40,682 bases of DNA from a virus. Lineage: Duplodnaviria; Caudoviricetes. The translations under genes and the position numbers were made by a program. Shown here piece after piece: positions 14,100 through 36,360 of this stretch; the first letter of the stretch is position 1, and each line of letters begins with the position of its first letter. A model generated the notes under the pieces. That model did no database searches and had not been told where the DNA came from. It saw only the letters and a program-made list of their open reading frames with translations. The stretch spans positions 1 to 40,682 of the IMG/VR virus record IMGVR_UViG_3300030061_001844, one strand, 5' to 3'.

Positions 14100-14185
14100 C
14101 TTTCCTTTTATTGATATTATCTTTTTATTATAATAGAGATATAACTATTATTCTTATTAGAAGAATATGATATTCGCGATAATCA
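14100..14185. promoter_or_regulatory. Very AT-rich intergenic tract (candidate promoter or unwinding element)
   Basis: TTTTATTGATATTATCTTTTTATTATAATAG...TTCTTATTAGAAGAA directly upstream of the minus-strand operon. Confidence 0.45.
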
Positions 14186-14384
14186 TTCGTGTTAATGTGT
14201 AGATTAGCGCGTAGATAGATACTCAACATCACAACACAACCATGCATGTGTCATAGTTGTTGCGATAGACGCGAGGTGAATGTGATGTATTGATTCAAGA
14301 GCAACGGGTGATATGTCAAGAGCGTTAGTAATCGCGCATACTCGACAAAGGAATAGGATAATTTTGACTGATGAATCAATCACT

Positions 14385-14399
14385 CAACCGTATGGTTGG
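14385..14399. promoter_or_regulatory. Near-palindromic operator-like site CAACCGTATGGTTGG, copy 1
   Basis: Identical 15-mer at 15829-15843; both copies are intergenic. Confidence 0.6.
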
Positions 14400-14469
14400 C
14401 GTTGCATCGAGTCTTTGGTTATACCAGCAAGAGAAACCGTGAATGACTTTCATTTAGGTTTCGAGGTAT

Positions 14470-14514
14470 AAAAAAAAGGCGCGATGCATAGCCAACCCGA
14501 CTATGCACCACGCC
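14470..14514 (-). terminator. Hairpin plus U-tract terminator
   Basis: Minus strand GGCGTGGTGCATAGTC-GGGTT-GGCTATGCATCGCGCC (16 pairs, 3 of them G-U) followed by T8, downstream of 14586..15695. Confidence 0.8.
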
Positions 14515-14585
14515 AAAGAATGGGTGAGGATTACGATTCCTCAAACGAGTGTGATTGATAACTCAATGGTTAATCAAGTGAGTAT
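14478..14585 (-). ncRNA. Conserved structured 3'-UTR element, copy 2
   Basis: Same motif order as 7332-7436; TGAGGA/TCCTCA stem with ATCGTAA loop. Confidence 0.6.
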
Positions 14586-15790: not shown

Positions 15791-16054
15791 CGCGCTCTTG
15801 CCGCGAAAAGGAGAGCAAGAACGCGTGACAACCGTATGGTTGGAGGCGCGATGGAATCGCGCCGGAAACCCGCGATAAAGCAACCGCGAAACGCGCTACT
15901 GCGCGACTGTTTCCCATGCGACATAGTGCATAAGCGCGTGGCGATTACCAGCGCGAATGCTTCGCGCTTTACCGCGAGTTCCTCGCGGAGTATTTGCCCG
16001 TCGCGTTAGCCGGAGTCGCGCTCGCGGCGCGACAATTTGCCCTCCTTAACCGCG
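15791..16054. other. CGCG-dense non-coding region at the strand switch (candidate ori, pac site or terminus)
   Basis: 19 CGCG tetramers counted by hand, followed by A/T tracts at about 16070-16111. Confidence 0.6.
15829..15843. promoter_or_regulatory. Operator-like site CAACCGTATGGTTGG, copy 2
   Basis: Identical to 14385-14399. Confidence 0.6.
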
Positions 16055-16155
16055 TGCGAAATACAGATATTTTTTTCGTGGGGGTCAAAAAAAAATTCCA
16101 GCCATTTTTTTATCAACCGCTATGTTCAAGGGTGTGGTTGTCCTCCCATCCACTA

Positions 16156-19100
16156 ATGCGTCCGAGTGTCCGTGTTGTTAAGTCGGTTGACGAGGGACTA
16201 ATCCTCAAGGAAACCAATCAACAGAAAAAAGACAAACGCAAAGCAGAACGCGATGCGGCAAGAAAAGCCAAAAAAGCGGCACGCAAAGCAAAAAAACGCG
16301 GTGAGAAACCACCAAAGCAAGTAAAAGTTGTTGACAAAAAACCCGCCGCGGAGGAAAAATTTGACCCGTTTGAAGGAAAAAATATCGACCCCGCACAAGA
16401 AAAGGCAAGGGAGAAAATAAAAGAGGCGGGTGAAAAAAGACGCGCTGAAAACGCTAAACGCGTAGATGCTTTGCGCGAAAAAGCAAGAAAAAGTCGCGAA
16501 AGAAGAAAGAAAGAACAAGAAGAGTCCGGGTTAAGCCCCGAAGAGTTCCGCGAAATGAAGGAACTTGAAAGACTCGTAGCCGAAGAAAAGAAGGCTAAAA
16601 CTGTCAAAGTAGTTGACCCTCCCGCTAAAGAAGAACCTCCTAAAGAAGAACCTCCTAAAGAAGAACCTCCTAAAGAAGAAAAGCCAAAGACCGTCAAAGT
16701 AGTTGACTCCGCAAAAGATGACAAAGAAGGAAAAGGCGGTAAAACACAAAGAGGTTTCGCGTCTTTAGCACCTTACATGGCTGAATTAGTCAGTCGATAC
16801 AAAGATGAAGAAATAGACGCGACTGAATTTTACGAAGACATAGTTTTCGCTAACAATATGCTTTTGGGTCGTGCTTTAGGACAAGAGAAGGATGAAATGC
16901 TACAAGAGCGCGAAGATGGCTTTCCCGCTATGCTTCACGAACCATTCTTAAACGCGCCTGTTATGATGCATTTGAAGAGGTTGTCGAATGAGTTCCCCGA
17001 ACTCAAAGATGTGCAAAAAGCAGATGAAGAAATGAACGGTAGTTTAGAAAATGCTATGGGCGGAACGCGAGGAATACGCGCTGATATTTCATCCTTCATC
17101 GCAGACCCATTGAATGAGGGCAGACCTCATCAAGAAAAAGACATCAATGGTATTTACAAACTTCTTAACAAATACGACCACCCTCTCGGTGTCACGCTGT
17201 CGGCGGAGATACCAAAGAGTGACCGTATCGTTCCCACTTACAGACCAAGAGAAGCGCGAAAAATTCGTGTTGCTGGTCGAATGCAAGACCCTTCATTTGA
17301 ACAAGAGATGAACCGATTACGCGATGAGCAGATGGAGAACTTGAAGTTTAGAGAAGATAAACGATTTACTACGGACCGCGATAAAGGCGGAGCGAGTAGA
17401 TTTTACGATAAGTTGTTCGGAGAAGGTGAAGTCAACCTAAGAAGAGAAAAAGGACAAGAAGGCCAGTCAAGTTTTCAACTTAAAAACCCTTCATCATCAA
17501 CAACACAATCCATACTCAACCAAGTGCGAGATATTGCGCGTGAAGAATCTGTTGATGAAAAAACCGCTTACAAAAAAATGATGGAGAAGTTCAACGATTA
17601 TATGATTTCATTGACAGGGAACAAAGCGTTCGGAACATCGGGGCGCGCAGGTAGAACTGGACAAGAAATAGAAGTTGGGCGTTCGCCGGACGCAATTACG
17701 CCTTCTATGGTTGATGCCGCGAAACAACTTGGGTTGTCTTCTGCTGTGGCAAACATGCCCGATTTGTTAGTGAGTCGATACATGAAAGACCCTAAAAGTG
17801 CATTCAGTCAAAAAACGCGTAATGAATTGGCCGATGAGTTAGCGGGTATGGGTCAAGAAGGTTTTCACCCAACGCTAATATCTGCTATGGGTGAAGAAGG
17901 ACTCTTGAGTAGTCTATTTGGTGATGAAAGCGCGGTGACTGTCGAGGGTGCTGGGCCGGGTGGTTCACAAGAAGAAGTGGAACAAAGAGCCAGTGAAGCG
18001 CGAAGAGCAAGATTTGGTGGGGTTGCAACTGAATCTTCAATGATGGAACCCGAAGATGAACTCGCGGTTGTTCAAGGTAAAAGAAAATTATCACCATCTC
18101 AACGAATGACACAACTTGAGCGACAATTCAATCAAGGTGATATTGACGAGTATGAATACGAAATGCAACGCGCGGCAATCAATTTAGACCAACACAAATT
18201 AGACTCGGATGCTGAATTAGGTGGCTTAACTGGTAATGATTTCGAGGTTGGTCACGCGTATCACGGTTTGAGTGAAGAAAAACTCATCGAACAATCAAAT
18301 AATTTTGTTGACAACCTCATCGGTATGGCGCGCATAATGCGAGAAATACGACACAAAGCATACGATAACAATGGTGCGGAAACAGACCAAGAAAAACACG
18401 ATGTTGATAAGAAGTTGGAGGCTATTGGTTTAACCGCAGAAAACTTTGTTGCTTTTGGTAATATTGAAAACGCAACATACGAAGACAAGCAACGCTACAA
18501 CAAACTCGATGAAATCATAAGCCCGGAACAATTAGTTAATACAGCAAAAAAAGGTGATAAGCCAAAAATGAAGACTATTGCTGGCACAGGCACTTTAGCA
18601 GTAATGCTCCCTATTATGACTTCGCGGCTGAATCGACAACACGACATGATGAAAGATATTGGAATGTCAAATGTTGATTTAGTGAAAGCGGCGATGAAAT
18701 ACGCTAATGCTGATATGGGTGTGAATGGATACAAGGAGGCTTTTGCTTCGTTAGGGGCGCAAGCACAAAAAGGTAAATTGAACACATATCCAATATATCG
18801 TTTGTTGCAGTATTTGAGGAAAAAAGGATACCGTGAAGCACTCGATGAAGCGCACCATCAAAAAGTCGAAGAACAACAACGAAAGTTTGCAAAGAACCAC
18901 ACTGCGCGTCAAGCAATGAAAGAAGAGGCTAAATTCACACCTGCTTCGGAATACGATATTGAGGCAGGTGCGCCCGAACACATGGAACATATACTCCACG
19001 ACAAAGAAAAGTGCCTTTCATGTCACGAAGACCGATTTGGCACAAGAGATGCACCAACAGCGCGAGCGCATTCACCAGTTAAGGGTGATAAATCACCCTT

Positions 19101-22100
19101 TGCTCACAAGTCTATCACACTCCCGCAATTTACAAATTACAAAAAACGCGGACAAGATTTCCCATTAGATGTCACCGGCTCTACTGAAAATGAAACTTCA
19201 CTCGCCGCTATATTGAGGCACATTTACCCCGAAGATGACAGATACAACCACAAAAAGTTGATGAGTCGAAAACAAAAATATCTTGATAATCCAAAATTAA
19301 ACACTTACGAAGGGTTCATCAAACCTACAACTCGACAGTTCAAAAATAAAATCAAGCAAGCGGTTATCACAGGTCACCCACGCGCGGCTAACATTTTCAA
19401 GAAGTTTGGACTTTACCGAACAAAGGAGAACGGAATAGCAACTGGCCCAGCAGGGATGAGCAACAAAGAGTTGGTTGCTTCTTCATTCTTCATGAACAAC
19501 GACGATTCAATCGACAAGCACCAAGAATCAATGCGTAAGAGAACACTTCTATCGACGCGTTTCAATGCGATTACTGATGCTATGCATTTCATGGAAGAAC
19601 TCGCAGACGGCGACTATGGTAGCAAAATCAAACCGGGTGCGCTAAAGAGTAGAGCCAACCGAATCGCGTTATTGGGTGAGATGATAAATGAACCCACTAA
19701 AGGTATTCAAAAAGAAAATAGAAAGATTGAGAAAAGAAAGCGGGAAATTGATACTTACAAAAACCTATATCGACAATATATAGATGATAAAATGGCTTAT
19801 GATGCTAATTTAGCAAAAACGAAACCAACATATCAATTGTTTAATGAATTGACAGGAAAAATTCGCGGTGAATTTGAAACAAAAGAAGATGCAGAAAAAG
19901 CAATCAAGAATATGAAAGATAAAGACAACAAACCCGATACTTACATGCAAAGTATCCACTCGGTTCAAGAACAACGCGGTGAATATGATTCACCGGGTCA
20001 AATAGCAATGATTGAAGCACAGGCTGATGAAATCGACAAGAAATATGGTAAAATGTTGATGCTCCGTAAGAAGAAATTGAGAGAGATAAAATCATACGAA
20101 AAGAAAGCCGCTAAGTTGAAAGACGCGAGCGAAGATAACATCAATCGAACAAATGAATACATGCTTGGCGCGTTTATCAATTCGGGCGATAAGATGGCTA
20201 ACATATTCACCAAGATGAAAAAATCACCGGAGGGTGTAAGTCAACACGCTTTGATGGGTATGCTCGCTGAATTGCATGATGATATGTATGGCGATGATGA
20301 TTATGATTCGGTGCTTAGAGGCGACGCGAGTGGGAGAACGGACAAAGACTTCACTCATTCACTAAGCAACTATAAACTCGGTAGAATGGGCGAAATGGGT
20401 GGAACGGGTGTTATGAGTTTGACCAATAACAAAGCCCTCCCGCGAATCAATTCAATCAACCAACTGCTCGCTCATCGCATTCAAATGGGATTCCCTCTCA
20501 CAGAAGAAGATATTGAGCGCGCTAAGGGTATGTTGCATGATGCTGATATGGCGGATACTGTTGACAAAGAAGATTATAATGAGTGGTCGAAAGGTTTGAC
20601 CATAGATGATGATGTTGATTTCAATATGTCCGAATTAGAACATGAGCATCATGATGATTCCGAAGACGACTTGGGGTTGCTAACAGAAGAAGAGGCGGCG
20701 CGAAGAGAACAAAACTCACACTTTACAAAAGGTAGTGAAAAGGCGATAGAGAACGGTGACATTGAAGCCCATAATTTAGTATCCAATTGGAGAGGTAATG
20801 CACCAACTTTGTGCGGTGTATGTCACGGACATCGGTTCGTGACAAGAGATGAAGCGGTATCATACATTCGTCATCGCATACCCGGTATGGAAGGTGTAGG
20901 TCGCGAGAGTTCAAAGATGAACAACTATATCGCTAACAAAATGAGGCCGCGTGGGTTTGCTTCTTACGATGAACACCCTATGGCTGATGAAATGGACCCG
21001 AATGAACACGAACAATTCGCGTGTCCAGCCTGTGAGCATTCAAGTGACTATGTTCAAGGTGGTAAATGTAGCAACGGTCTTTGTGGTGATTGTTTTGGCA
21101 CAGGTGAGCGCGACCCAACGGATGATGAACATATCCAAGAAGGATACATAGACGCGGAGGGAAATAAAATTGATGGAAAAAACCACCACTATTCGCATAA
21201 TGGAATGGTGGGTGAGAAGTTCGATTACCTCAACCAACTTCTGCTAAGACATGCAGAAATGGCACAATCGGGTGAAATACCGGATTATTTGAAAGATATA
21301 GTCAAACCTCAATCACCAGTGTGGGAGCAGTTTGATAAGCATGTAGGTTCGGGTAAATTTCAAACATTTGAAGATGAGCGTGAAGCGCGCAGAAAGAAGA
21401 AATTAGAACCGTTGGTGATTGACCCTAACGCGCCGGAACTACCCGCCCCACCACGCGCGAGAAGTCAATTCCGAATCGAACAACCCGACGAAGGTGGTAT
21501 GCCGCAGATTGACTTCGATATGAGTGAAGAAAAACCTTTCCAACTAAATATTGTGAACAATTTAGCAATGCAAAAGCATCATGAGATATTTTTGAAGAAG
21601 CATCTTGACATTCTATACAAATCGGCTCTTCAAGGTCAACCCCAAATGAAAGAAGAAATTAACGAATTATACGCCAGCATCGTTAATGACCCAGCACTAC
21701 AAGACATTCACAATGACGAAGACCACCATTTGATTGAAAAAATACACGAACTACAAGAAATCGCGGATGCGAATTATGTTGATGATATTAGCGACATCGC
21801 GAGTTTGAGTGCTAAAGAGAGAAAGGCGATGCGCGCAAAACGAAGACAGTTGCCTGTTGACGAAAACGGTGATTTGCAATTGACTATGGATGATGTGTTT
21901 GGTGGAAATGCGCCAATGTCTTTCAACGCCTTCGATAAATATACTCCTAAACACGGACACATGCAAACAGAAACCGAAATACGAGAAGGGTTATTTGAGC
22001 CGGGAGAAGACAATCAACCAAAACCAGTGACAATGAAGCAATTGAGAAGTTTTTTCATGGGGCGACCGGATGTATTGAAAATGCTCAATAGAATTGAAGC

Positions 22101-23259
22101 CAGTGAAAAATACAAATCGGAGAGTGCTGAAAAAATTAAAAGCGCGCTTGATAGTGTTGAAAAACCATTAGTGGCGCGAAAAACAGGCAATATGTATAGC
22201 GAATCACTCAATGATATTTTGAAGCAGTTTGGTGAAAAACCAATGACACAAGAGATGGGTTCTTATCAATTGACTTACAGTGATGAAGCGTTAAAAGCAT
22301 TTAAAGAAGCGGGAGCAACAAATGTTAATTCATTGATGACTGTCAAAAACAAAAATAATCTAAATCGTGCATTAGATGAAGGATACACCCGCGAAAGAAG
22401 TGCAACGATGAAACCGTTATGGCAAGAGTATGTCATGCGAAAAGCACTTCAACACTTCATGTCGAATGTGAATAACCCTCTTCAATACCCAACAATACCA
22501 GCAGGTATCAATCAAAATAACTTCGCTGAAATGGTGGGAGAAAACAGCGGGTTGTTTCAATTGATGAAAGATGAGGCCGCGAAAGTTGCTGGTTATGAAG
22601 ACGAAGAAGATTTGGAAAAGAAACTCAACATGTCAACAAGCCCGACTGTCGGCGGTGTAAAGTTGAATGTTAACGAGTTTAAGGCAGATGTTTTGAAGAA
22701 TGCGACACACGAAGACTCACATCAACTGCCGATGGGTTATATTCGATACGATAAGAAGGGTAAAGGCAAAATGGTTGCTAAAGACGCTGAAACTATACTG
22801 AATGAAAGTCAAGAACAATTGTTAAAACCTAATGATATGAAGAAATACGAAAACGCGATAAGAACTGTCAACTACAACATGAGGCCAAACTACATGAGAA
22901 TGAAAGAGATTAGGAGTGTATTGCATGGCGAAGACGGCAAACACGACGGCTACGATGGTTATGAAGAACTTGCAACAGCATTTACCAACAAAGCATTACC
23001 GGCGGAACAACAAGCGTTGTTAGAAACCAGTGGTCCGTTGTTGAAATTATCTCATCGACACCTTACTCCAATTTCTTTTGCTGACGCGCAATCGTATGCT
23101 TTAGCCGCGGAAGAAAATAAGAAATTCCAAGAAGGACTGAAAGCGCGACGAGAAGGAACATTGTTAGGTCCAGTGCCTATCACTCAACCAATTCAGCAAC
23201 CAATTCAACAACCAATTCAACAACCCCAACAACAAATTGATTTCAACATGGATTCTTGA
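16156..23259 (+). CDS. Giant (2367-aa) charged protein with Cys/Zn motifs; possibly virion-internal
   Basis: Likely start ATG 16156 (MRPSVRVVKS); the upstream TTG extension runs through the non-coding CGCG tract. K/E-rich; CLSCH, CGVCHG, CPAC and CGDCFGTG motifs. Confidence 0.85.
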   Translation: MRPSVRVVKSVDEGLILKETNQQKKDKRKAERDAARKAKKAARKAKKRGEKPPKQVKVVDKKPAAEEKFDPFEGKNIDPAQEKAREKIKEAGEKRRAENAKRVDALREKARKSRERRKKEQEESGLSPEEFREMKELERLVAEEKKAKTVKVVDPPAKEEPPKEEPPKEEPPKEEKPKTVKVVDSAKDDKEGKGGKTQRGFASLAPYMAELVSRYKDEEIDATEFYEDIVFANNMLLGRALGQEKDEMLQEREDGFPAMLHEPFLNAPVMMHLKRLSNEFPELKDVQKADEEMNGSLENAMGGTRGIRADISSFIADPLNEGRPHQEKDINGIYKLLNKYDHPLGVTLSAEIPKSDRIVPTYRPREARKIRVAGRMQDPSFEQEMNRLRDEQMENLKFREDKRFTTDRDKGGASRFYDKLFGEGEVNLRREKGQEGQSSFQLKNPSSSTTQSILNQVRDIAREESVDEKTAYKKMMEKFNDYMISLTGNKAFGTSGRAGRTGQEIEVGRSPDAITPSMVDAAKQLGLSSAVANMPDLLVSRYMKDPKSAFSQKTRNELADELAGMGQEGFHPTLISAMGEEGLLSSLFGDESAVTVEGAGPGGSQEEVEQRASEARRARFGGVATESSMMEPEDELAVVQGKRKLSPSQRMTQLERQFNQGDIDEYEYEMQRAAINLDQHKLDSDAELGGLTGNDFEVGHAYHGLSEEKLIEQSNNFVDNLIGMARIMREIRHKAYDNNGAETDQEKHDVDKKLEAIGLTAENFVAFGNIENATYEDKQRYNKLDEIISPEQLVNTAKKGDKPKMKTIAGTGTLAVMLPIMTSRLNRQHDMMKDIGMSNVDLVKAAMKYANADMGVNGYKEAFASLGAQAQKGKLNTYPIYRLLQYLRKKGYREALDEAHHQKVEEQQRKFAKNHTARQAMKEEAKFTPASEYDIEAGAPEHMEHILHDKEKCLSCHEDRFGTRDAPTARAHSPVKGDKSPFAHKSITLPQFTNYKKRGQDFPLDVTGSTENETSLAAILRHIYPEDDRYNHKKLMSRKQKYLDNPKLNTYEGFIKPTTRQFKNKIKQAVITGHPRAANIFKKFGLYRTKENGIATGPAGMSNKELVASSFFMNNDDSIDKHQESMRKRTLLSTRFNAITDAMHFMEELADGDYGSKIKPGALKSRANRIALLGEMINEPTKGIQKENRKIEKRKREIDTYKNLYRQYIDDKMAYDANLAKTKPTYQLFNELTGKIRGEFETKEDAEKAIKNMKDKDNKPDTYMQSIHSVQEQRGEYDSPGQIAMIEAQADEIDKKYGKMLMLRKKKLREIKSYEKKAAKLKDASEDNINRTNEYMLGAFINSGDKMANIFTKMKKSPEGVSQHALMGMLAELHDDMYGDDDYDSVLRGDASGRTDKDFTHSLSNYKLGRMGEMGGTGVMSLTNNKALPRINSINQLLAHRIQMGFPLTEEDIERAKGMLHDADMADTVDKEDYNEWSKGLTIDDDVDFNMSELEHEHHDDSEDDLGLLTEEEAARREQNSHFTKGSEKAIENGDIEAHNLVSNWRGNAPTLCGVCHGHRFVTRDEAVSYIRHRIPGMEGVGRESSKMNNYIANKMRPRGFASYDEHPMADEMDPNEHEQFACPACEHSSDYVQGGKCSNGLCGDCFGTGERDPTDDEHIQEGYIDAEGNKIDGKNHHYSHNGMVGEKFDYLNQLLLRHAEMAQSGEIPDYLKDIVKPQSPVWEQFDKHVGSGKFQTFEDEREARRKKKLEPLVIDPNAPELPAPPRARSQFRIEQPDEGGMPQIDFDMSEEKPFQLNIVNNLAMQKHHEIFLKKHLDILYKSALQGQPQMKEEINELYASIVNDPALQDIHNDEDHHLIEKIHELQEIADANYVDDISDIASLSAKERKAMRAKRRQLPVDENGDLQLTMDDVFGGNAPMSFNAFDKYTPKHGHMQTETEIREGLFEPGEDNQPKPVTMKQLRSFFMGRPDVLKMLNRIEASEKYKSESAEKIKSALDSVEKPLVARKTGNMYSESLNDILKQFGEKPMTQEMGSYQLTYSDEALKAFKEAGATNVNSLMTVKNKNNLNRALDEGYTRERSATMKPLWQEYVMRKALQHFMSNVNNPLQYPTIPAGINQNNFAEMVGENSGLFQLMKDEAAKVAGYEDEEDLEKKLNMSTSPTVGGVKLNVNEFKADVLKNATHEDSHQLPMGYIRYDKKGKGKMVAKDAETILNESQEQLLKPNDMKKYENAIRTVNYNMRPNYMRMKEIRSVLHGEDGKHDGYDGYEELATAFTNKALPAEQQALLETSGPLLKLSHRHLTPISFADAQSYALAAEENKKFQEGLKARREGTLLGPVPITQPIQQPIQQPIQQPQQQIDFNMDS
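16625..16680 (+). repeat. 15-bp tandem repeat (about 3.7 copies) encoding KEEPP
   Basis: CTAAAGAAGAACCTC x3 plus a partial copy. Confidence 0.95.
23185..23225 (+). repeat. 12-bp tandem repeat encoding QPIQ
   Basis: CAACCAATTCAR x3 plus CAACC. Confidence 0.9.
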
Positions 23260-23322
23260 TAATATTGTTTTATTCTTAGAATTATAATTACTATATTGTT
23301 ATCATAATAATATGATAATATC
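23258..23322. promoter_or_regulatory. AT-rich intergenic tract upstream of the GTPase operon
   Basis: Nearly all A/T, with short inverted repeats (TATCATA...TATGATA) and TTATAA. Confidence 0.45.
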
Positions 23323-23388
23323 GAGAAAGAGGTGAATCAACATGCTTATGTATCGTTCGCGACACGCACTACTCAAGGAGATACGGTT

Positions 23389-23907
23389 ATGCAACAACAA
23401 ACCCCCCAAAATAAAGATGAATTGAGAGTGTTAGGACTTATTTCATTTGTAAGCATACTTGTCGGATGCGCGATTGCTGTTTTCGATGCTGGATTGTGGC
23501 TTACATCACCCGATACTTACACGAACGCTATAACATACACGATGGGCGCGTTCACATTACAAGGAATGGCTTATTTTATTTACAAGATGTTAGCGCAAGA
23601 TGGCATGGACCAACGCGCTATTGTTTCAAATATGCAACGCAACATGACGCGTCAAATGCAAAACCAACAAATGCGATTTGCACAAGCGCAAATGGAAATG
23701 GAGATTAAAAAACAAGAAGTTAATTTCGCAAAACAAATGGAGGCGTTGGAGCAAGACCCCGAAGTTCAACAATATCTTGGTTTGATGGGTATGAATGAAG
23801 AAACAGAAGCACCGAAGCACAAAGCAGACACTAAAAAACCCATGAAATTAGGCAATCAAACCAGCGGCAGAAATCCCGATGGCACTTACAAAAAGAAAGG
23901 GAAGTGA
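23389..23907 (+). CDS. Two-TM membrane protein with Gln/Met-rich coiled coil
   Basis: Likely start ATG 23389 after AAGGAG. Hydrophobic VLGLISFVSILVGCAIAVF and AITYTMGAFTLQGMAYFIY, then a Q/M-rich helix. Confidence 0.8.
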   Translation: MQQQTPQNKDELRVLGLISFVSILVGCAIAVFDAGLWLTSPDTYTNAITYTMGAFTLQGMAYFIYKMLAQDGMDQRAIVSNMQRNMTRQMQNQQMRFAQAQMEMEIKKQEVNFAKQMEALEQDPEVQQYLGLMGMNEETEAPKHKADTKKPMKLGNQTSGRNPDGTYKKKGK

Positions 23908-23912
23908 TTTGA

Positions 23913-24149
23913 ATGGGTTGGTTGTTTAAAACACCAAGCGATGATGCAACAGAAGCGACTTTACGCGCGTTGCATACACAAAATACACTCGATACTTATT
24001 ATGAAAAGGGCAAAGCGTTGATATTTTGTATAATTACAGGTGTAGTCACCGCGTTGAGTGTGTCTTGGTTTGAACAAGCAAGCGATGTGAGCGTTTGGGA
24101 AAGCACAGTTGAGTGGTTTTACGAAAAACTTCGCGGGTGGGTCAACTAA
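23913..24149 (+). CDS. Small single-pass membrane protein
   Basis: ALIFCIITGVVTALSVSWF; Trp-rich amphipathic C-terminus. Confidence 0.8.
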   Translation: MGWLFKTPSDDATEATLRALHTQNTLDTYYEKGKALIFCIITGVVTALSVSWFEQASDVSVWESTVEWFYEKLRGWVN

Positions 24150-24871
24150 TGGTTGCAACATTCGCTGGAAGCGCGCTCATGGGAGCAGTAGTTTATGGAA
24201 AAGAACTCTATAATTTTCTTAAACCACGCAGAATAGGTGTTTATGGTCCAACAATGGTGGGTAAAACAACTCTTGACCATTTTATGCGCACTCCGGGCGA
24301 GATGGATGATATAGATGAACGCACTATGCACCCGAAACGGCTTATTGGTGGTGGTTATGTCTTACCAAAAGCGTCGCGTAAGCGTCTTCGTTGGCAAGGA
24401 GAGAAAAGAGTAGTTCATTCTGCTGATATTGGCGGTCAACAACGGTTTTGGAATCTTTGGATTGATGATATGGTCGATAGACAAGTTGAAATTGTCGTTT
24501 TTTTAACCGATACGCGTGTTTTGACAGGTAATGGGGCGCAAATTATAGACGCGGTGGGTGGATTTGAATACCTCGTTGATTCTTTGATTGAAAAACGGTG
24601 GAAATATCGCTCACTAAAAACAAGACTTCGCGGAAAACGCTATTCCCCTAAACAAATATGGCTCGTTGCTAACAAAGCGGATGAGTGGTGGGACGATAAT
24701 GCGAATATTTTGTGGCAATCTAATCGTTTGCGAGAACATAAAGTGTTTGATGCTCACCGCCCAGCCATGCGGAGGCTTCAAAAAGCCGGTATTCCTTGTC
24801 GCGTTAGCATGATGGCGACTAAAATAGGCTGGAATGTTGAAAAAACGATGATAGAAATGTTAACTTGGTGA
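24149..24871 (+). CDS. Ras-superfamily small GTPase (Arf/Rab-like)
   Basis: Start ATG 24149 (TAATG overlap). G1 GPTMVGKTT, G3 DIGGQ, G4 NKAD, G5-like MATKIGWNVE. Confidence 0.88.
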   Translation: MVATFAGSALMGAVVYGKELYNFLKPRRIGVYGPTMVGKTTLDHFMRTPGEMDDIDERTMHPKRLIGGGYVLPKASRKRLRWQGEKRVVHSADIGGQQRFWNLWIDDMVDRQVEIVVFLTDTRVLTGNGAQIIDAVGGFEYLVDSLIEKRWKYRSLKTRLRGKRYSPKQIWLVANKADEWWDDNANILWQSNRLREHKVFDAHRPAMRRLQKAGIPCRVSMMATKIGWNVEKTMIEMLTW

Positions 24872-24875
24872 TAAA

Positions 24876-25766
24876 ATGCTTGGAAATAAACCTCAAAACG
24901 ATTTACTGACGCTTGCCGCACAAACACAGATGAGTCTTGCTCAAATGCAACAGCAAGCGACCGCTCAAGCCGCTATGACGAACGCAAAATCGCATATTGA
25001 AGTGCCTCAAGTCAATTTTTACCCCTCTCGTCATCCAAATCCTAAAAAAGCGCGCCGTCAAGACATAAAACAGGCATATAAACTCCTAAAACCGATAAAA
25101 AGAAGCATTTTTTCGCCTCGTAGGTGGTGGGGAGGCAAATATCGCTATAATACTAACACAATGCGCTGTGTTGTGGACGGATGTGATGTTGAATACCTAT
25201 TACGGACCGCTGGAAACATCTATGAGCAGGTTATTGACGAAGAAACTGGTCAATCTCTATGGGATTTGTATTGGAAAAACCCTGTGACTGGTGAAGTTGA
25301 AGCGTTTGTAGCCCGCGAAAATGTCACTTCGGGGCGTAAATTGAAGGGGACATATTGCCCCGAACACCTCCATTTATACCATTTATTGACAAAATGGCTT
25401 AAAGAAGACGAAAAAGAAGAAGAAGAAACTAATGGAACACTCAAAGCAAAACTGAAAAGAGGTGTTTCAACCGTAGTTGTGCCAATAAATAGCATCAAAA
25501 AGAAGGATAACACACCACCAATTCTCGCAAAATATGAGCCATTTTTTGAAATGTTGAAAAAAGACAACATTCCTGTGACACATTTTGCTAACTCCGCGAC
25601 AGGAACGAATGATTTGGTTATGGTTGTCTTCGATATGCGTCAATTTCAAGCGGGTAATAACTCAAGGTTGCTTTTTGACGCTCTTGCTATGCATCAATTA
25701 CAACAAAACGCGGTGCAATCTCACCCATTGCCTTTACCGACACAATCAAATGATGGGAGCATGTGA
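24876..25766 (+). CDS. Hypothetical protein with putative Zn site and Gln-rich termini
   Basis: CVVDGC...YCPEH; Q/A-rich N-terminus. Confidence 0.8.
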   Translation: MLGNKPQNDLLTLAAQTQMSLAQMQQQATAQAAMTNAKSHIEVPQVNFYPSRHPNPKKARRQDIKQAYKLLKPIKRSIFSPRRWWGGKYRYNTNTMRCVVDGCDVEYLLRTAGNIYEQVIDEETGQSLWDLYWKNPVTGEVEAFVARENVTSGRKLKGTYCPEHLHLYHLLTKWLKEDEKEEEETNGTLKAKLKRGVSTVVVPINSIKKKDNTPPILAKYEPFFEMLKKDNIPVTHFANSATGTNDLVMVVFDMRQFQAGNNSRLLFDALAMHQLQQNAVQSHPLPLPTQSNDGSM

Positions 25767-25775
25767 GGTGGTATT

Positions 25776-26354
25776 ATGGTGTGGCCGTTCAGCAATAACC
25801 AACAACAACCTCAACCGGGTGCTATGAACCTCGGATTAGCCGGTGGACAACAACAAGTTCCTATGCAGGGACAACAGCAACAATGGGGTCAACAACAGTA
25901 TGGGTTGCAGTATCAAGCACCTCCGACTGAAATGGAGATATTATCAGCCATGATAACATCTAACCCTATGATTGATAAGTGGCTTTCCGACAATAACGGA
26001 GAGAATATGAATATGCTCGTTTCACTTTTGAGTAGTCTTGTCGCGGTATCAGTGAATACAATGCTTACAAATACGCGCTTAGTTGAAGATGGAGATGGAT
26101 ACAAATTCGATTTTAGCGGTGTCACAGGTATGCCAACAGTCGATAGTGTCACAATGTCACAAACCCAAATACTCAACAAAGCATCAAACAATGTGCAACA
26201 GAAAACCATGCAGTTTCAACAGATGGTTCAACTTGCAAATCAAGGTGTTATGCAAAGTATGTTGAATGACGCGATGGCTGACCCCGGCATGATGCAAAGT
26301 GTTGGTGGCGGTCTTGGTTCATTGGTTCGTGGATTAGCAACAGGTGGTAGGTAA
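25776..26354 (+). CDS. Gln/Met/Gly-rich low-complexity protein
   Basis: GAGGTGG RBS; poly-Q N-terminus, hydrophobic central helix, C-terminal GGGLGSLVRGL. Confidence 0.8.
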   Translation: MVWPFSNNQQQPQPGAMNLGLAGGQQQVPMQGQQQQWGQQQYGLQYQAPPTEMEILSAMITSNPMIDKWLSDNNGENMNMLVSLLSSLVAVSVNTMLTNTRLVEDGDGYKFDFSGVTGMPTVDSVTMSQTQILNKASNNVQQKTMQFQQMVQLANQGVMQSMLNDAMADPGMMQSVGGGLGSLVRGLATGGR

Positions 26355-26587
26355 TGGACATAACTTCTCTTTACACAGCAGTTAGTGATATGACTAACTT
26401 GCGCAAATCAGTAATTGTTGATATGATTATGGTGCAACTTATCGCGCTTACGCTTGGTTGTTTCCTCATTTTAGTGTTTTCCGGCCCAAAAATGAGTTCA
26501 ACTGATTTGAGTTGGATTATTGGTGCGCTTTTCGTCTGTTTCAGCGCAACAGGTATCGTTTATCGCCGCCTCGGACAACAAGGTTGA
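26354..26587 (+). CDS. Small two-TM membrane protein (holin-like topology)
   Basis: Two hydrophobic segments and a basic C-terminus YRRLGQQG. Confidence 0.75.
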   Translation: MDITSLYTAVSDMTNLRKSVIVDMIMVQLIALTLGCFLILVFSGPKMSSTDLSWIIGALFVCFSATGIVYRRLGQQG

Positions 26588-26848
26588 CCATTTATTGATA
26601 GGGCATTTGCTGTTCTTGAAAATGGTTTTTGCTTTCAAAAAACAACCACATAGATTGCAACGGTCGTGGGTTCGTTCGGGACATCTCAAACAAATGTTGT
26701 ATCTTCGTTCGCGTTCTGCCAAGTCAACTCTTTTGTTAGTGACAATATCAGCCGCGGCTCGCGTGAGGCTTTTTGCTGTCGATATGGAAATGGGGATACC
26801 TGCTACTTTACGCGCTCTCGGCAATCTCTCTCTCATAGAAACACTCAT
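26498..26848 (-). CDS. Small Cys-rich protein (DUF6171-like)
   Basis: RYNICLRCP...RCNLCGCFLKAKT...KCPINKW pattern. Confidence 0.7.
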   Translation of the reverse strand: MSVSMRERLPRARKVAGIPISISTAKSLTRAAADIVTNKRVDLAERERRYNICLRCPERTHDRCNLCGCFLKAKTIFKNSKCPINKWSTLLSEAAINDTCCAETDEKRTNNPTQIS

Positions 26849-34833: not shown

Positions 34834-34979
34834 TGACTCAACCTGTTGTGTATCACAGTTGTTGCTACACAGCAGATAAGTCATATCCTTTTGGATTTTG
34901 TAAAAAGTGTTGGGAGAAAAACGGTAGTCCGCAAACAATGGCTTGGAATAAGAGAAAGGTGAATCGCGTTGAAAATTGA
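34833..34979 (+). CDS. 48-aa Cys-rich microprotein
   Basis: Manual translation MTQPVVYHSCCYTADKSYPFGFCKKCWEK...; TAATG overlap; fills the gap. Confidence 0.65.
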   Translation: MTQPVVYHSCCYTADKSYPFGFCKKCWEKNGSPQTMAWNKRKVNRVEN

Positions 34980-36360
34980 TTTGTCCGACGAAACAGCATT
35001 CATTGATGCTATTTTGAAAAATACAATTCAAGGAGCATCTTTTGGTGACGCGCCCAAACCTATTCAAGAAGGACAAGGCACAGCAAACGCTAATCCAACA
35101 CCACCTAAACCAAATGAAATCGAAGAAGAAGAAAATAAAAGAGAAATGGCTCAAGAAGTTGCTCAACAACTCAAGCGTTCTCAACCTAATGGTGATTGGT
35201 TCAACACTATGTTTGGTCGCAATGCTGGTGACTTAGTGAAGGATTTACGGATGGCGCGCCGTGTTAACAAAAGTATGCGCGATGCTATTGATGAAGCCAT
35301 TGATGCTATACGCATCGCAAAGAAACAAGAAGTCGAAGCAACTTTGCAATCAATAGAGTGGATTGGTAAGCACGACAAAACAGTTCGTAATTTAGGTATC
35401 AGCGACCGTGACCTCCAAGCATTGCGAAAACACGGCGTATCGCGAGAATACGCATTAAGAAGAGCGTGTGTTCAATGGGAAAAAGCCAACGACACTATCA
35501 GTAAATTACTTCTCATTGAAGGTGAGTTTGACGATAATCAACGACAGATGTGGGTTGATGCTCAACAACTCAAAAAGAACGCGAAAAAAGAGTGGAGGAA
35601 TTGTCTTCATTCTATTGACAACATCAAGAAGACTGATGCTATTTTCCTTGCAAAAGCCGCGAATATTCTTGAAGAGCGTGGTCCTTTACCAAGCAATGAG
35701 ATTTTCAACAGTATGCAAGGAACAACTCATTTAACAACTCAAAAACTATCATCTTTGTTTAAGATGCATGGTGTTGAATACGACATAGAGAAGGTTGGTG
35801 TTGGATGGGGACTTGTTCGCGACAACACTGTGATTTTCAAAGATGTATGGGCTTACGCCGCTGGTTTCCTCGACGCTGATGGCTACATCACTATCACTAA
35901 GCGTCTTGAACCAAGAGCAGGTTTCATCGCGACAGGTGAGCGAGGTAAGTTGCATTGTGAGCAATTACATAAAGCACTTGGGTGTGGCGTTCTTCAAACA
36001 GATTTAAAAATTCATAAAAACAGCAGACGAACACAACACCGCTTACAATTTTACAGCGAAAATGATTTGCGCAAATTGATGAAAGGTATTACAAAACATC
36101 TTCGTATGAAGAAAGGACAGGCCAATGCGGTCATTGAATTGCTCGATATGCGCGGTCGTAAAACTGACATTATCAAATCACGCCGCGACGAACTTTACCG
36201 TATTGTCAAATGGCTCAATTGGAAAGATGTTCCCGACAAGCGTGAAGAACTTTTGAAGGAGTGGAACATTGATGAGGTGGGAGTTCGTGCCATGTTTAGT
36301 CGGGACGGTGAAACCCTTCGTCTTCTTGACGATGCGAACCGACTTGTGGAGATGATGTAA
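34969..36360 (+). CDS. Helical/winged-helix protein fused to a C-terminal LAGLIDADG domain
   Basis: WAYAAGFLDADGYITI motif after about 290 aa of N-terminal region; AGGTGA RBS before TTG. Confidence 0.85.
   Translation: MKIDLSDETAFIDAILKNTIQGASFGDAPKPIQEGQGTANANPTPPKPNEIEEEENKREMAQEVAQQLKRSQPNGDWFNTMFGRNAGDLVKDLRMARRVNKSMRDAIDEAIDAIRIAKKQEVEATLQSIEWIGKHDKTVRNLGISDRDLQALRKHGVSREYALRRACVQWEKANDTISKLLLIEGEFDDNQRQMWVDAQQLKKNAKKEWRNCLHSIDNIKKTDAIFLAKAANILEERGPLPSNEIFNSMQGTTHLTTQKLSSLFKMHGVEYDIEKVGVGWGLVRDNTVIFKDVWAYAAGFLDADGYITITKRLEPRAGFIATGERGKLHCEQLHKALGCGVLQTDLKIHKNSRRTQHRLQFYSENDLRKLMKGITKHLRMKKGQANAVIELLDMRGRKTDIIKSRRDELYRIVKWLNWKDVPDKREELLKEWNIDEVGVRAMFSRDGETLRLLDDANRLVEMM

Follow-up and report, generated by a model that had tools for sequence, protein, structure and literature searches.

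Gene block at the locus

The virus record IMGVR_UViG_3300030061_001844 of IMG/VR, analysed here over its whole 40,682 nucleotides (nt; the window), carries six plus-strand genes, A, B, G, Z, Q and H, in which a divergent small GTPase (gene G) is accompanied by predicted membrane proteins, a Cys/His protein and a Gln-rich protein (Table 1). Five of them, A-B-G-Z-Q, form a cassette that is deeply conserved among relatives and undescribed in the literature searched, and for which a role in virus exit is the favoured, tentative reading. The description of six closely coupled genes behind an AT-rich tract in the first-pass annotation of this DNA agrees with the coordinates: the gaps along A-B-G-Z-Q-H are 5, -1, 4, 9 and -1 nt, and the minimum-GC 65-mer of the window (12% GC) begins at 23256, 5' of gene A. 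A GC dip at this site is found in 58/67 group A loci and is not clear elsewhere (4/12 loci in clade c1 and 12/59 in clade c4). A scan for sigma-70 promoters, whose consensus does not cover archaeal promoters, gave a chance-level result, and GGAG precedes the ATG of gene A. All six genes are under purifying selection, with a ratio of nonsynonymous to synonymous polymorphism (pN/pS) of 0.03-0.27 per gene against 4-5 close relatives; the lowest values (0.03-0.09) belong to gene G. None of the six window proteins has a meaningful match in Pfam, PHROGs or NCBIfam.

Table 1. Features of the cassette region in the window (aa, amino acids; ORF, open reading frame)
Feature	Coordinates	Strand	Description
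Gene A	23389..23907	+	172 aa; predicted membrane protein; core
Gene B	23913..24149	+	78 aa; predicted single-pass membrane protein; core
Gene G	24149..24871	+	240 aa; divergent Ras-superfamily small GTPase; core
Gene Z	24876..25766	+	296 aa; soluble Cys/His protein, predicted metal site; core
Gene Q	25776..26354	+	192 aa; Gln/Met/Gly-rich ends; core
Gene H	26354..26587	+	77 aa; predicted two-pass membrane protein; accessory (clades A, c1)
AT-rich intergenic tract	23256..23331	no strand	5' of gene A; possible late promoter/terminator region, putative
Antisense Cys-rich ORF (DUF6171 / phrog_13558)	26498..26848	-	overlaps the end of gene H; clade A neighbour, non-core

Through its relative G001 (103 kb), the window is classed by sequence as a fragment from a tailed virus of the group A magrovirus type. 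The two are 94% identical in the terminase, 89% in the portal and 90% in the GTPase, and G001 encodes PolB, a clamp loader, an XPF nuclease, an SNF2 helicase, a thermosome, an HK97-type head protein, a protease and a tail tube. The thermosome and SNF2 are traits of group A magroviruses (PMC5434244), the group named Apasviridae in section 3.5 of PMC11706807. The set of group A characters, namely a halovirus-like head module, an archaeal replisome, a thermosome and an SNF2 helicase, was established on G001 rather than on the window fragment itself. Magroviruses are abundant in the surface ocean (PMC5434244), and the host, taken from the magrovirus papers, is likely a Poseidoniales (Marine Group II) archaeon.

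Gene G and its partners

Among 50 diverse homologues of gene G, the residues G33, G38, K39, T41, R58, T59, D93, G96, W104, N175, K176 and D178 are invariant (50/50), and the G5-like position [AS]223 is likewise kept in 50/50. T59 would be the G2 threonine, judging from its invariance, in a region where the model is weak. The Gln97 at the catalytic position is present in 30/50 homologues, and the remainder carry Glu, Asp or His. The AlphaFold2 model (mean predicted local distance difference test, pLDDT, 77.6) gives 1114 Foldseek matches at E<=0.001, with Rab, Rho and Ras rows on top. In VIA, the Z scores of Arf6 (15.2; root-mean-square deviation 2.5 over 157 aligned residues), SRbeta (14.9), a Loki Rag (14.7), the mimivirus Rab (14.4) and Sar1 (14.3) are tied. 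Both the G motifs and the G-domain fold of the Ras-superfamily small GTPases are thus found in gene G, and the earlier claim of a GTPase with complete G motifs stands; the protein is predicted to bind and hydrolyse GTP.

The claim that this GTPase is Arf/Rab-like fared less evenly. The Arf family is characterised by an N-terminal helix, a short retractable interswitch, the signature wDvGGqXXXRxxW and nucleotide-dependent membrane binding (PMC2063696). The N-terminal helix is present in gene G, covering residues 2-24 in the model, and a hydrophobic-then-amphipathic extension of 24-28 residues occurs in 49/49 aligned rows, where the best 11-mer moment is 0.39-0.85 (no control set). The interswitch from T59 to D93, however, spans 32-35 residues in clades A, c1 and c3 and 24 residues in c4, compared with 19 residues counted in the alignment for GerdArfR1. 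The signature is only partly kept: its D, second G and final W occur in 50/50 homologues and the first G in 42/50, but the Arg occurs in 7/50, its place being taken by Trp in 41/50 including the window protein, and the leading Trp in 0/50. With an interswitch that is too long and a partial signature, membership of the Arf family is rejected; the small-GTPase fold of the earlier claim stands, and its Arf/Rab assignment was overstated. Because these two Arf features fail, gene G is placed, on sequence and model comparison, in a separate virus-specific small-GTPase family, leaning to the Arf side, and it may work like an Arf-side membrane switch. In addition, a basic insert at residues 145-168 contains 10 Lys/Arg and one acidic residue.

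The gene G family is small and isolated, since its profile finds only 87 matches among 1.84 billion representatives; 411 homologues are present in a protein set clustered at 90% identity. A broad profile, A2, which contains one bacterial Arf-like row, has GerdArfR1 as its best match in the PDB (E 3e-10), followed among GTPases by Arl8, while a narrow gene G profile meets P-loop fragments only and phmmer of gene G against the PDB finds nothing. Pfam Arf is weakly matched by 9/40 relatives (best E 0.01) and not by the gene G of the window. Searches with tblastn of gene G and a c4 GTPase against 50,697 GenBank phage records, a set without the Aoguangviridae type genome, returned nothing. In the Atlas listing, viral clusters come first and bacterial Arf-like clusters second, and one c4 member carries the automatic database label 'GTPase SAR1 family protein'.

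Gene Z is the partner best conserved alongside G, with a profile match in all four clades (A, c1, c3 and c4; c4 at P96-97). Its candidate ligands C98 (61/61), C161 (61/61) and H164 (60/61) are fixed, and the fourth floats, being C103 in 26/61; zinc binding is predicted, so that the earlier label of a Cys/His Zn protein holds for three ligand positions but not for a fixed fourth. The gene Z model (pLDDT 79) has no fold match (Foldseek best E 0.98; VIA best Z 4.4), which does not imply a new fold, and gene Z has no Atlas match. Gene Q, correctly described before as a Q/M/G low-complexity protein (Q 15%, M 9%, G 11%), has low-complexity ends around a conserved core of ~90 aa, and its merged profile reaches c4 at P95.7 and E 9e-9 over 90 columns.

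The membrane proteins are less uniform. In gene A of the window, one strong hydrophobic segment (Kyte-Doolittle hydropathy, KD, 2.68) is followed by a weak second one (0.91); of the two transmembrane segments proposed, the first is supported and the second is weak here, although two clear segments are present in 11/12 c1 proteins and in 51/60 of the positional equivalents in c4. A Gln/Met-rich tail, probably helical, follows the hydrophobic segments. Homologues of gene A are linked across clades A, c1 and c3 (hhalign P95-98), and the c4 gene is assigned by position and build only (P12). Gene B, a single-pass protein as first described, has its segment at residues 35-53 (KD 2.16), with profile links to c1 (P55) and c3 (P14) and an assignment by position only in c4. 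The identity of gene B everywhere, and of gene A in c4, is therefore set mainly by position and hydropathy. Gene H has two hydrophobic segments (KD 2.63 and 1.89), as claimed; its holin-like character would lie in its build only, as no holin family is matched in Pfam, PHROGs or NCBIfam, holins being known to be divergent.

Conservation and distribution of the cassette

Around the window, the gene order is constant in the best 80 of 154 near loci of clade A, where G and Z are present in 80/80, B and H in 79/80, A in 77/80 and Q in 74/80. The distant clades comprise 13 loci in c1, four in c3 and the best 80 of 375 in c4. With merged profiles, A-B-G-Z-Q is complete and in order in 151/151 loci with enough flank across the four clades, a count that leaves aside 29/180 loci as too short, includes some near-duplicates and takes A and B of c4 by position. 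G, Z and Q are linked by profile comparison in all four clades and A in three, even as the GTPase identity drops to ~30%. Gene H occurs in 82/82 clade A and 13/13 c1 loci with enough flank, but in 0/62 c4 and 0/4 c3 loci. Since H is absent from c3 and c4, the conserved unit consists of the five genes A-B-G-Z-Q with H as an accessory, and the six-gene module first proposed is rejected. The neighbours of gene G are thus co-conserved with it in relatives, and none of them has a match in a tail or structural family. Two of the three refuting conditions named in the first-pass annotation therefore do not hold, and its interpretation is supported in part.

The block lies 5' of the terminase genes in clades A and c1, between the capsid gene and the neck-region genes in c4, where it comes after the capsid gene, and behind the thermosome gene in c3; it shares its strand with the morphogenesis genes in the tailed clades. 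It relocates as one unit. Small ORFs of 60-74 aa are inserted between G and Z at L064:11318-11542, L078:2306-2527 and L062:2651-2833, and L064 has two more ORFs inserted there; the small ORFs look like putative AbrB/SpoVT-type regulators.

The most divergent carriers belong to clade c3. The c3 genome G004 (110 kb, 79% complete) has all four markers of the group D magroviruses, namely PolB, thermosome, resolvase and RNA polymerase A; the group is described with no identified morphogenetic block (PMC5434244), and no structural genes are reported for it in the available text of PMC5434244 and PMC10160649. Capsid, protease, terminase, portal and tail-tube profiles built from five tailed genomes find no match in G004 or in a second contig, G026, a negative that is limited by the 79% completeness of G004 and by a similarly built profile that missed its divergent primase. 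At E<1e-5, no more than seven ORFs of G004 have a match in the five tailed genomes. Four of them are the cassette genes A, G, Z and Q, and the others are PolB, the thermosome and one match that is short and weak; gene B was under the length cut-off of this comparison. Both G004 and G026 contain an FtsK/HerA-type ATPase amid conserved orphan ORFs, and G026 joins the same ATPase region to the cassette. G004 would thus be 'tailless'.

A candidate particle-building block of group D lies at ~61-82 kb of G004 (L240) and ~11-28 kb of G026 (L252-L253). It comprises the ATPase (238 aa), a 204-aa protein, neighbours of 294, 314 and 406 aa, and small hydrophobic and Lys/Arg-rich proteins. The 204-aa protein is 85% identical between G004 and G026 and has 51 homologues.

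The converse case is G029 (L337-L341), a complete tailed genome of 95.6 kb with terminal repeats, which is collinear with the group B genome G008 across the head-tail region. None of the five cassette genes is found in it by profile, nor any ORF with the G1-G3-G4 pattern, and abutting ORFs of 117 and 1004 aa occupy the expected block site. In a PolB-based sample (18/80 loci, on contigs of ~32 kb or more; 16 records examined), the GTPase is present in six records, and in five of the six with a capsid match; three of these five were already in the GTPase-based set. The block looks like an all-or-none module that is not needed to build the head-tail particle. At L337:5453-5884, G029 also encodes a membrane protein of 143 aa, which has a charged tail and is missing from 14 records that carry the cassette; it is a possible substitute for the cassette.

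Several further observations concern the carriers and the surroundings. PolB is split, as in group B, in several c4 genomes, and the c1 genomes G005 (91% complete; L232-L236) and G006 (88%) have no PolB match; G005 carries capsid, terminase, primase, XPF and thermosome genes. Scans for the distant GTPase clades P0125 and P0248 found no viral loci. The 8-kb contigs L081, L082 and L083 have viral gene order and sit in bins labelled Asgard archaeon, Maricaulis and Parvibaculum; they could be misread as cellular Arf-like genes, and their candidacy as cellular homologues is rejected, the gene order indicating that they are likely binned viral DNA. In the window, genes for a helix-turn-helix protein, the large terminase and the portal lie 3' of the cassette. 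The antisense ORF matches DUF6171 (Pfam E 3.6e-7) and phrog_13558 (E 1.3e-15), overlaps gene H by 90 nt, occurs in 78/80 near loci and has a pN/pS of 0.17-0.34. Immediately 5' of the cassette, on the strand of gene A, a 2421-codon ORF (15994-23259, +) has no Pfam or PHROG match and is fast-evolving, with 21-74% identity in the best segments of its relatives. A second very AT-rich intergenic stretch lies among minus-strand genes at ~14100-14580 (the 65-mer from 14106 has 14% GC). Between the terminase and portal genes, a 463-aa ORF (34969-36360, +) matches the endonuclease family phrog_5046 (E 2e-9) and is probably the inserted nuclease described for magroviruses.

Possible function and relation to known systems

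Several lines of evidence direct the cassette toward the host. Its relocation, its sharing with a group D element and its absence from G029 indicate that it is probably a host-facing membrane module and not a virion part, and its presence behind such different particles likewise points to the host. The two predicted membrane proteins, together with a GTPase that has a hydrophobic N-terminal helix and a basic insert, point to the host membrane, and its position amid the morphogenesis genes suggests that it acts late. GTPases of the Arf type work on membranes by way of an N-terminal helix (PMC2063696), and ArvA, a small GTPase of archaea, drives the formation of vesicles together with a Zn-finger partner (PMC10927574). 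For tailed viruses of archaea, including those of hosts without a peptidoglycan-like wall, the exit machinery is described as uncharacterised in PMC10791045, and no endolysin is recognisable among the 31 and 30 ORFs scanned, a part of those in the window, in agreement with the first-pass annotation.

The favoured reading, with a probability of roughly 0.4, is that the cassette is a GTP-gated exit or lysis device. It would assemble on the host membrane late in infection, and the GTP/GDP switch would time the rupture or opening of that membrane for virus release. A and B would provide the anchor or the lesion in the membrane, and G, the switch, would use its N-terminal helix and its basic insert for docking. 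Z could be a regulator or effector of G; as the catalytic Gln97 is missing from some of the homologues, G may depend on such a partner. Q would serve as an oligomeric scaffold and H as an optional extra membrane subunit. The wider proposal of a GTP-switched exit machine, unrelated to holins, pyramids or ESCRT and common to head-tail viruses and a tailless jelly-roll lineage in the same abundant marine archaeal hosts, is more tentative and, as a whole, somewhat unlikely.

Several points weigh against an exit device. The absence of the block from G029 means that it is dispensable or replaceable and not the sole exit route for such viruses. None of the cassette partners is similar to any known pore, coat or lysis protein, the holin-like gene H is not core, and an Arf-type membrane-sensing toggle in gene G is doubtful given the long interswitch. 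On the side of group D, the head-tail negative in G004 has the limits given above, the 204-aa jelly-roll capsid candidate has no PDB or PHROG match, and the reported enrichment of the group in fractions of cells instead of virions (PMC10160649) is also compatible with a non-lytic role.

The same anatomy of membrane anchors, switch and low-complexity scaffold would also suit a device that remodels the host membrane inside the cell into a membrane-attached site of assembly or replication, without cell breakage. The block adjoins capsid, terminase or thermosome genes, and host membrane may be needed by a group D particle without a tail, if such a particle exists; but head-tail particles contain no lipid and G029 has the full head-tail gene set without the block, and this possibility is considered unlikely. 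Control of the host, through a module gated by the GTP level and acting in superinfection exclusion, depolarisation or counter-defence, is quite improbable. The all-or-none presence of the block, and its occurrence in unrelated elements that likely have the same host, are what accessory genes for host interaction typically show, and the nearest cellular GTPases were found in variable, mobile-looking bacterial loci, whereas the strong constraint on G (pN/pS as above), the fixed order at ~30% identity and the morphogenesis-gene position are unlike accessory genes of fast turnover.

A viral counterpart of ArvABC, serving vesicle release or budding for the non-lytic export of particles, DNA or decoys, has only a slim chance. 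In Haloferax, vesicles require ArvA, a small GTPase whose N-terminal helix is amphipathic and whose neighbour is a Zn-finger protein (PMC10927574), and the cell-fraction enrichment of group D (PMC10160649) is in its favour; the described operon, however, has three genes, to which the block adds two predicted membrane proteins and Q, and no window partner matches DUF2072 or DUF2073 in Pfam. We know of no precedent for the budding of a 100-kb tailed particle. Least credible, at very long odds, are virion or ejection proteins of the head-tail particle. The block lies within or beside morphogenesis genes in three clades, but it has no structural family match, is present in G004 and G026 without detectable head-tail genes and is absent from the complete tailed G029, and a tail or structural role is rejected on these grounds.

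Whatever its function, the cassette defines a family of Arf-side small GTPases that is specific to viruses, together with four partners that belong to no known family, and it is among the very few genes common to the tailed magroviruses and the enigmatic group D elements. As far as the available portions extend, the magrovirus papers PMC5434244, PMC10160649, PMC11706807 and PMC10768690 mention no GTPase or cassette. 'GTP' is absent from the main texts of PMC5434244, PMC11706807 and PMC10160649, and no GTPase term occurs in the covered supplements of these three, table S13 of PMC11706807 probably lying outside that coverage. The literature searches returned no description of the cassette; Zhou et al. 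2023 and Nishimura et al. 2017, outside their coverage, may annotate the gene. By sequence, the cassette is regarded as new as a system, and the GTPase on its own as a new family within a known superfamily. With its five genes, the block is a candidate exit system whose switch could be locked on or off by standard GTPase mutants. Should the wider proposal above hold, tailed viruses of wall-less archaea would have their first defined exit system, and a small-GTPase module that shapes membranes would have evolved in viruses.

Compared with the Arf family (GerdArfR1, PDB 8OUN/8OUM; Arl8, Arf6 and Sar1), gene G has the same fold, N-terminal helix and D-x-GG-q...W spacing. It differs in the long interswitch, the basic insert, the missing leading Trp and the rare signature Arg, its structural scores do not single out Arf (VIA tied with SRbeta, Rag, Rab and Sar1; Rab, Rho and Ras on top in Foldseek), and its gene lies in a fixed operon of the virus, next to partners that belong to no known family. 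The giant-virus GTPase (mimivirus Rab, PDB 5XC5) shares a virus-encoded Ras-superfamily fold with gene G, but belongs to the Rab family and a eukaryotic host, with no common partners known. The nearest non-viral sequences found are unnamed bacterial Arf-like GTPases (P0205 and P0253), which pass the Pfam Arf cut-off and also have an N-terminal helix. They meet gene G at E 7e-4 in the 1.84-billion search and, profile to profile, at P98.9 and E 4e-17 over 203 columns, but their identity to gene G is ~20%, on a separate branch (with a long-branch warning), and in 4/5 loci their neighbour is a soluble downstream protein of 179-205 aa that by inspection is unlike A, B, Z and Q. These bacterial-looking loci (L202:1489-2821, L203:6001-7292, L205:1505-3596 and L206:151-2273), whose 179-205-aa neighbour is of no Pfam family and two of which also have a common upstream protein of ~250-270 aa, may constitute a system of two or three genes that is so far undescribed.

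Holin-endolysin systems of tailed phages, and the putative holins of Adrikavirales (PMC11706807), resemble the cassette in having small predicted membrane proteins among late genes. The cassette differs in that its core is a GTPase with two soluble partners, its most holin-like gene is accessory, and it has no holin or endolysin match. In ArvABC (OapABC) of Haloferax volcanii and other archaea, the small GTPase with an N-terminal amphipathic helix and the Cys-containing zinc-type operon partner, a proposed regulator (PMC10927574), recall G and Z. ArvB (DUF2073) and ArvC (DUF2072) have no Pfam match among the six window proteins (E<=0.01) or in the three distant clades, and remote homology is possible. 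ArvABC is a cellular system of three genes, whereas the viral cassette joins its GTPase and Cys/His protein to the predicted membrane proteins A and B and to the Gln-rich protein Q.

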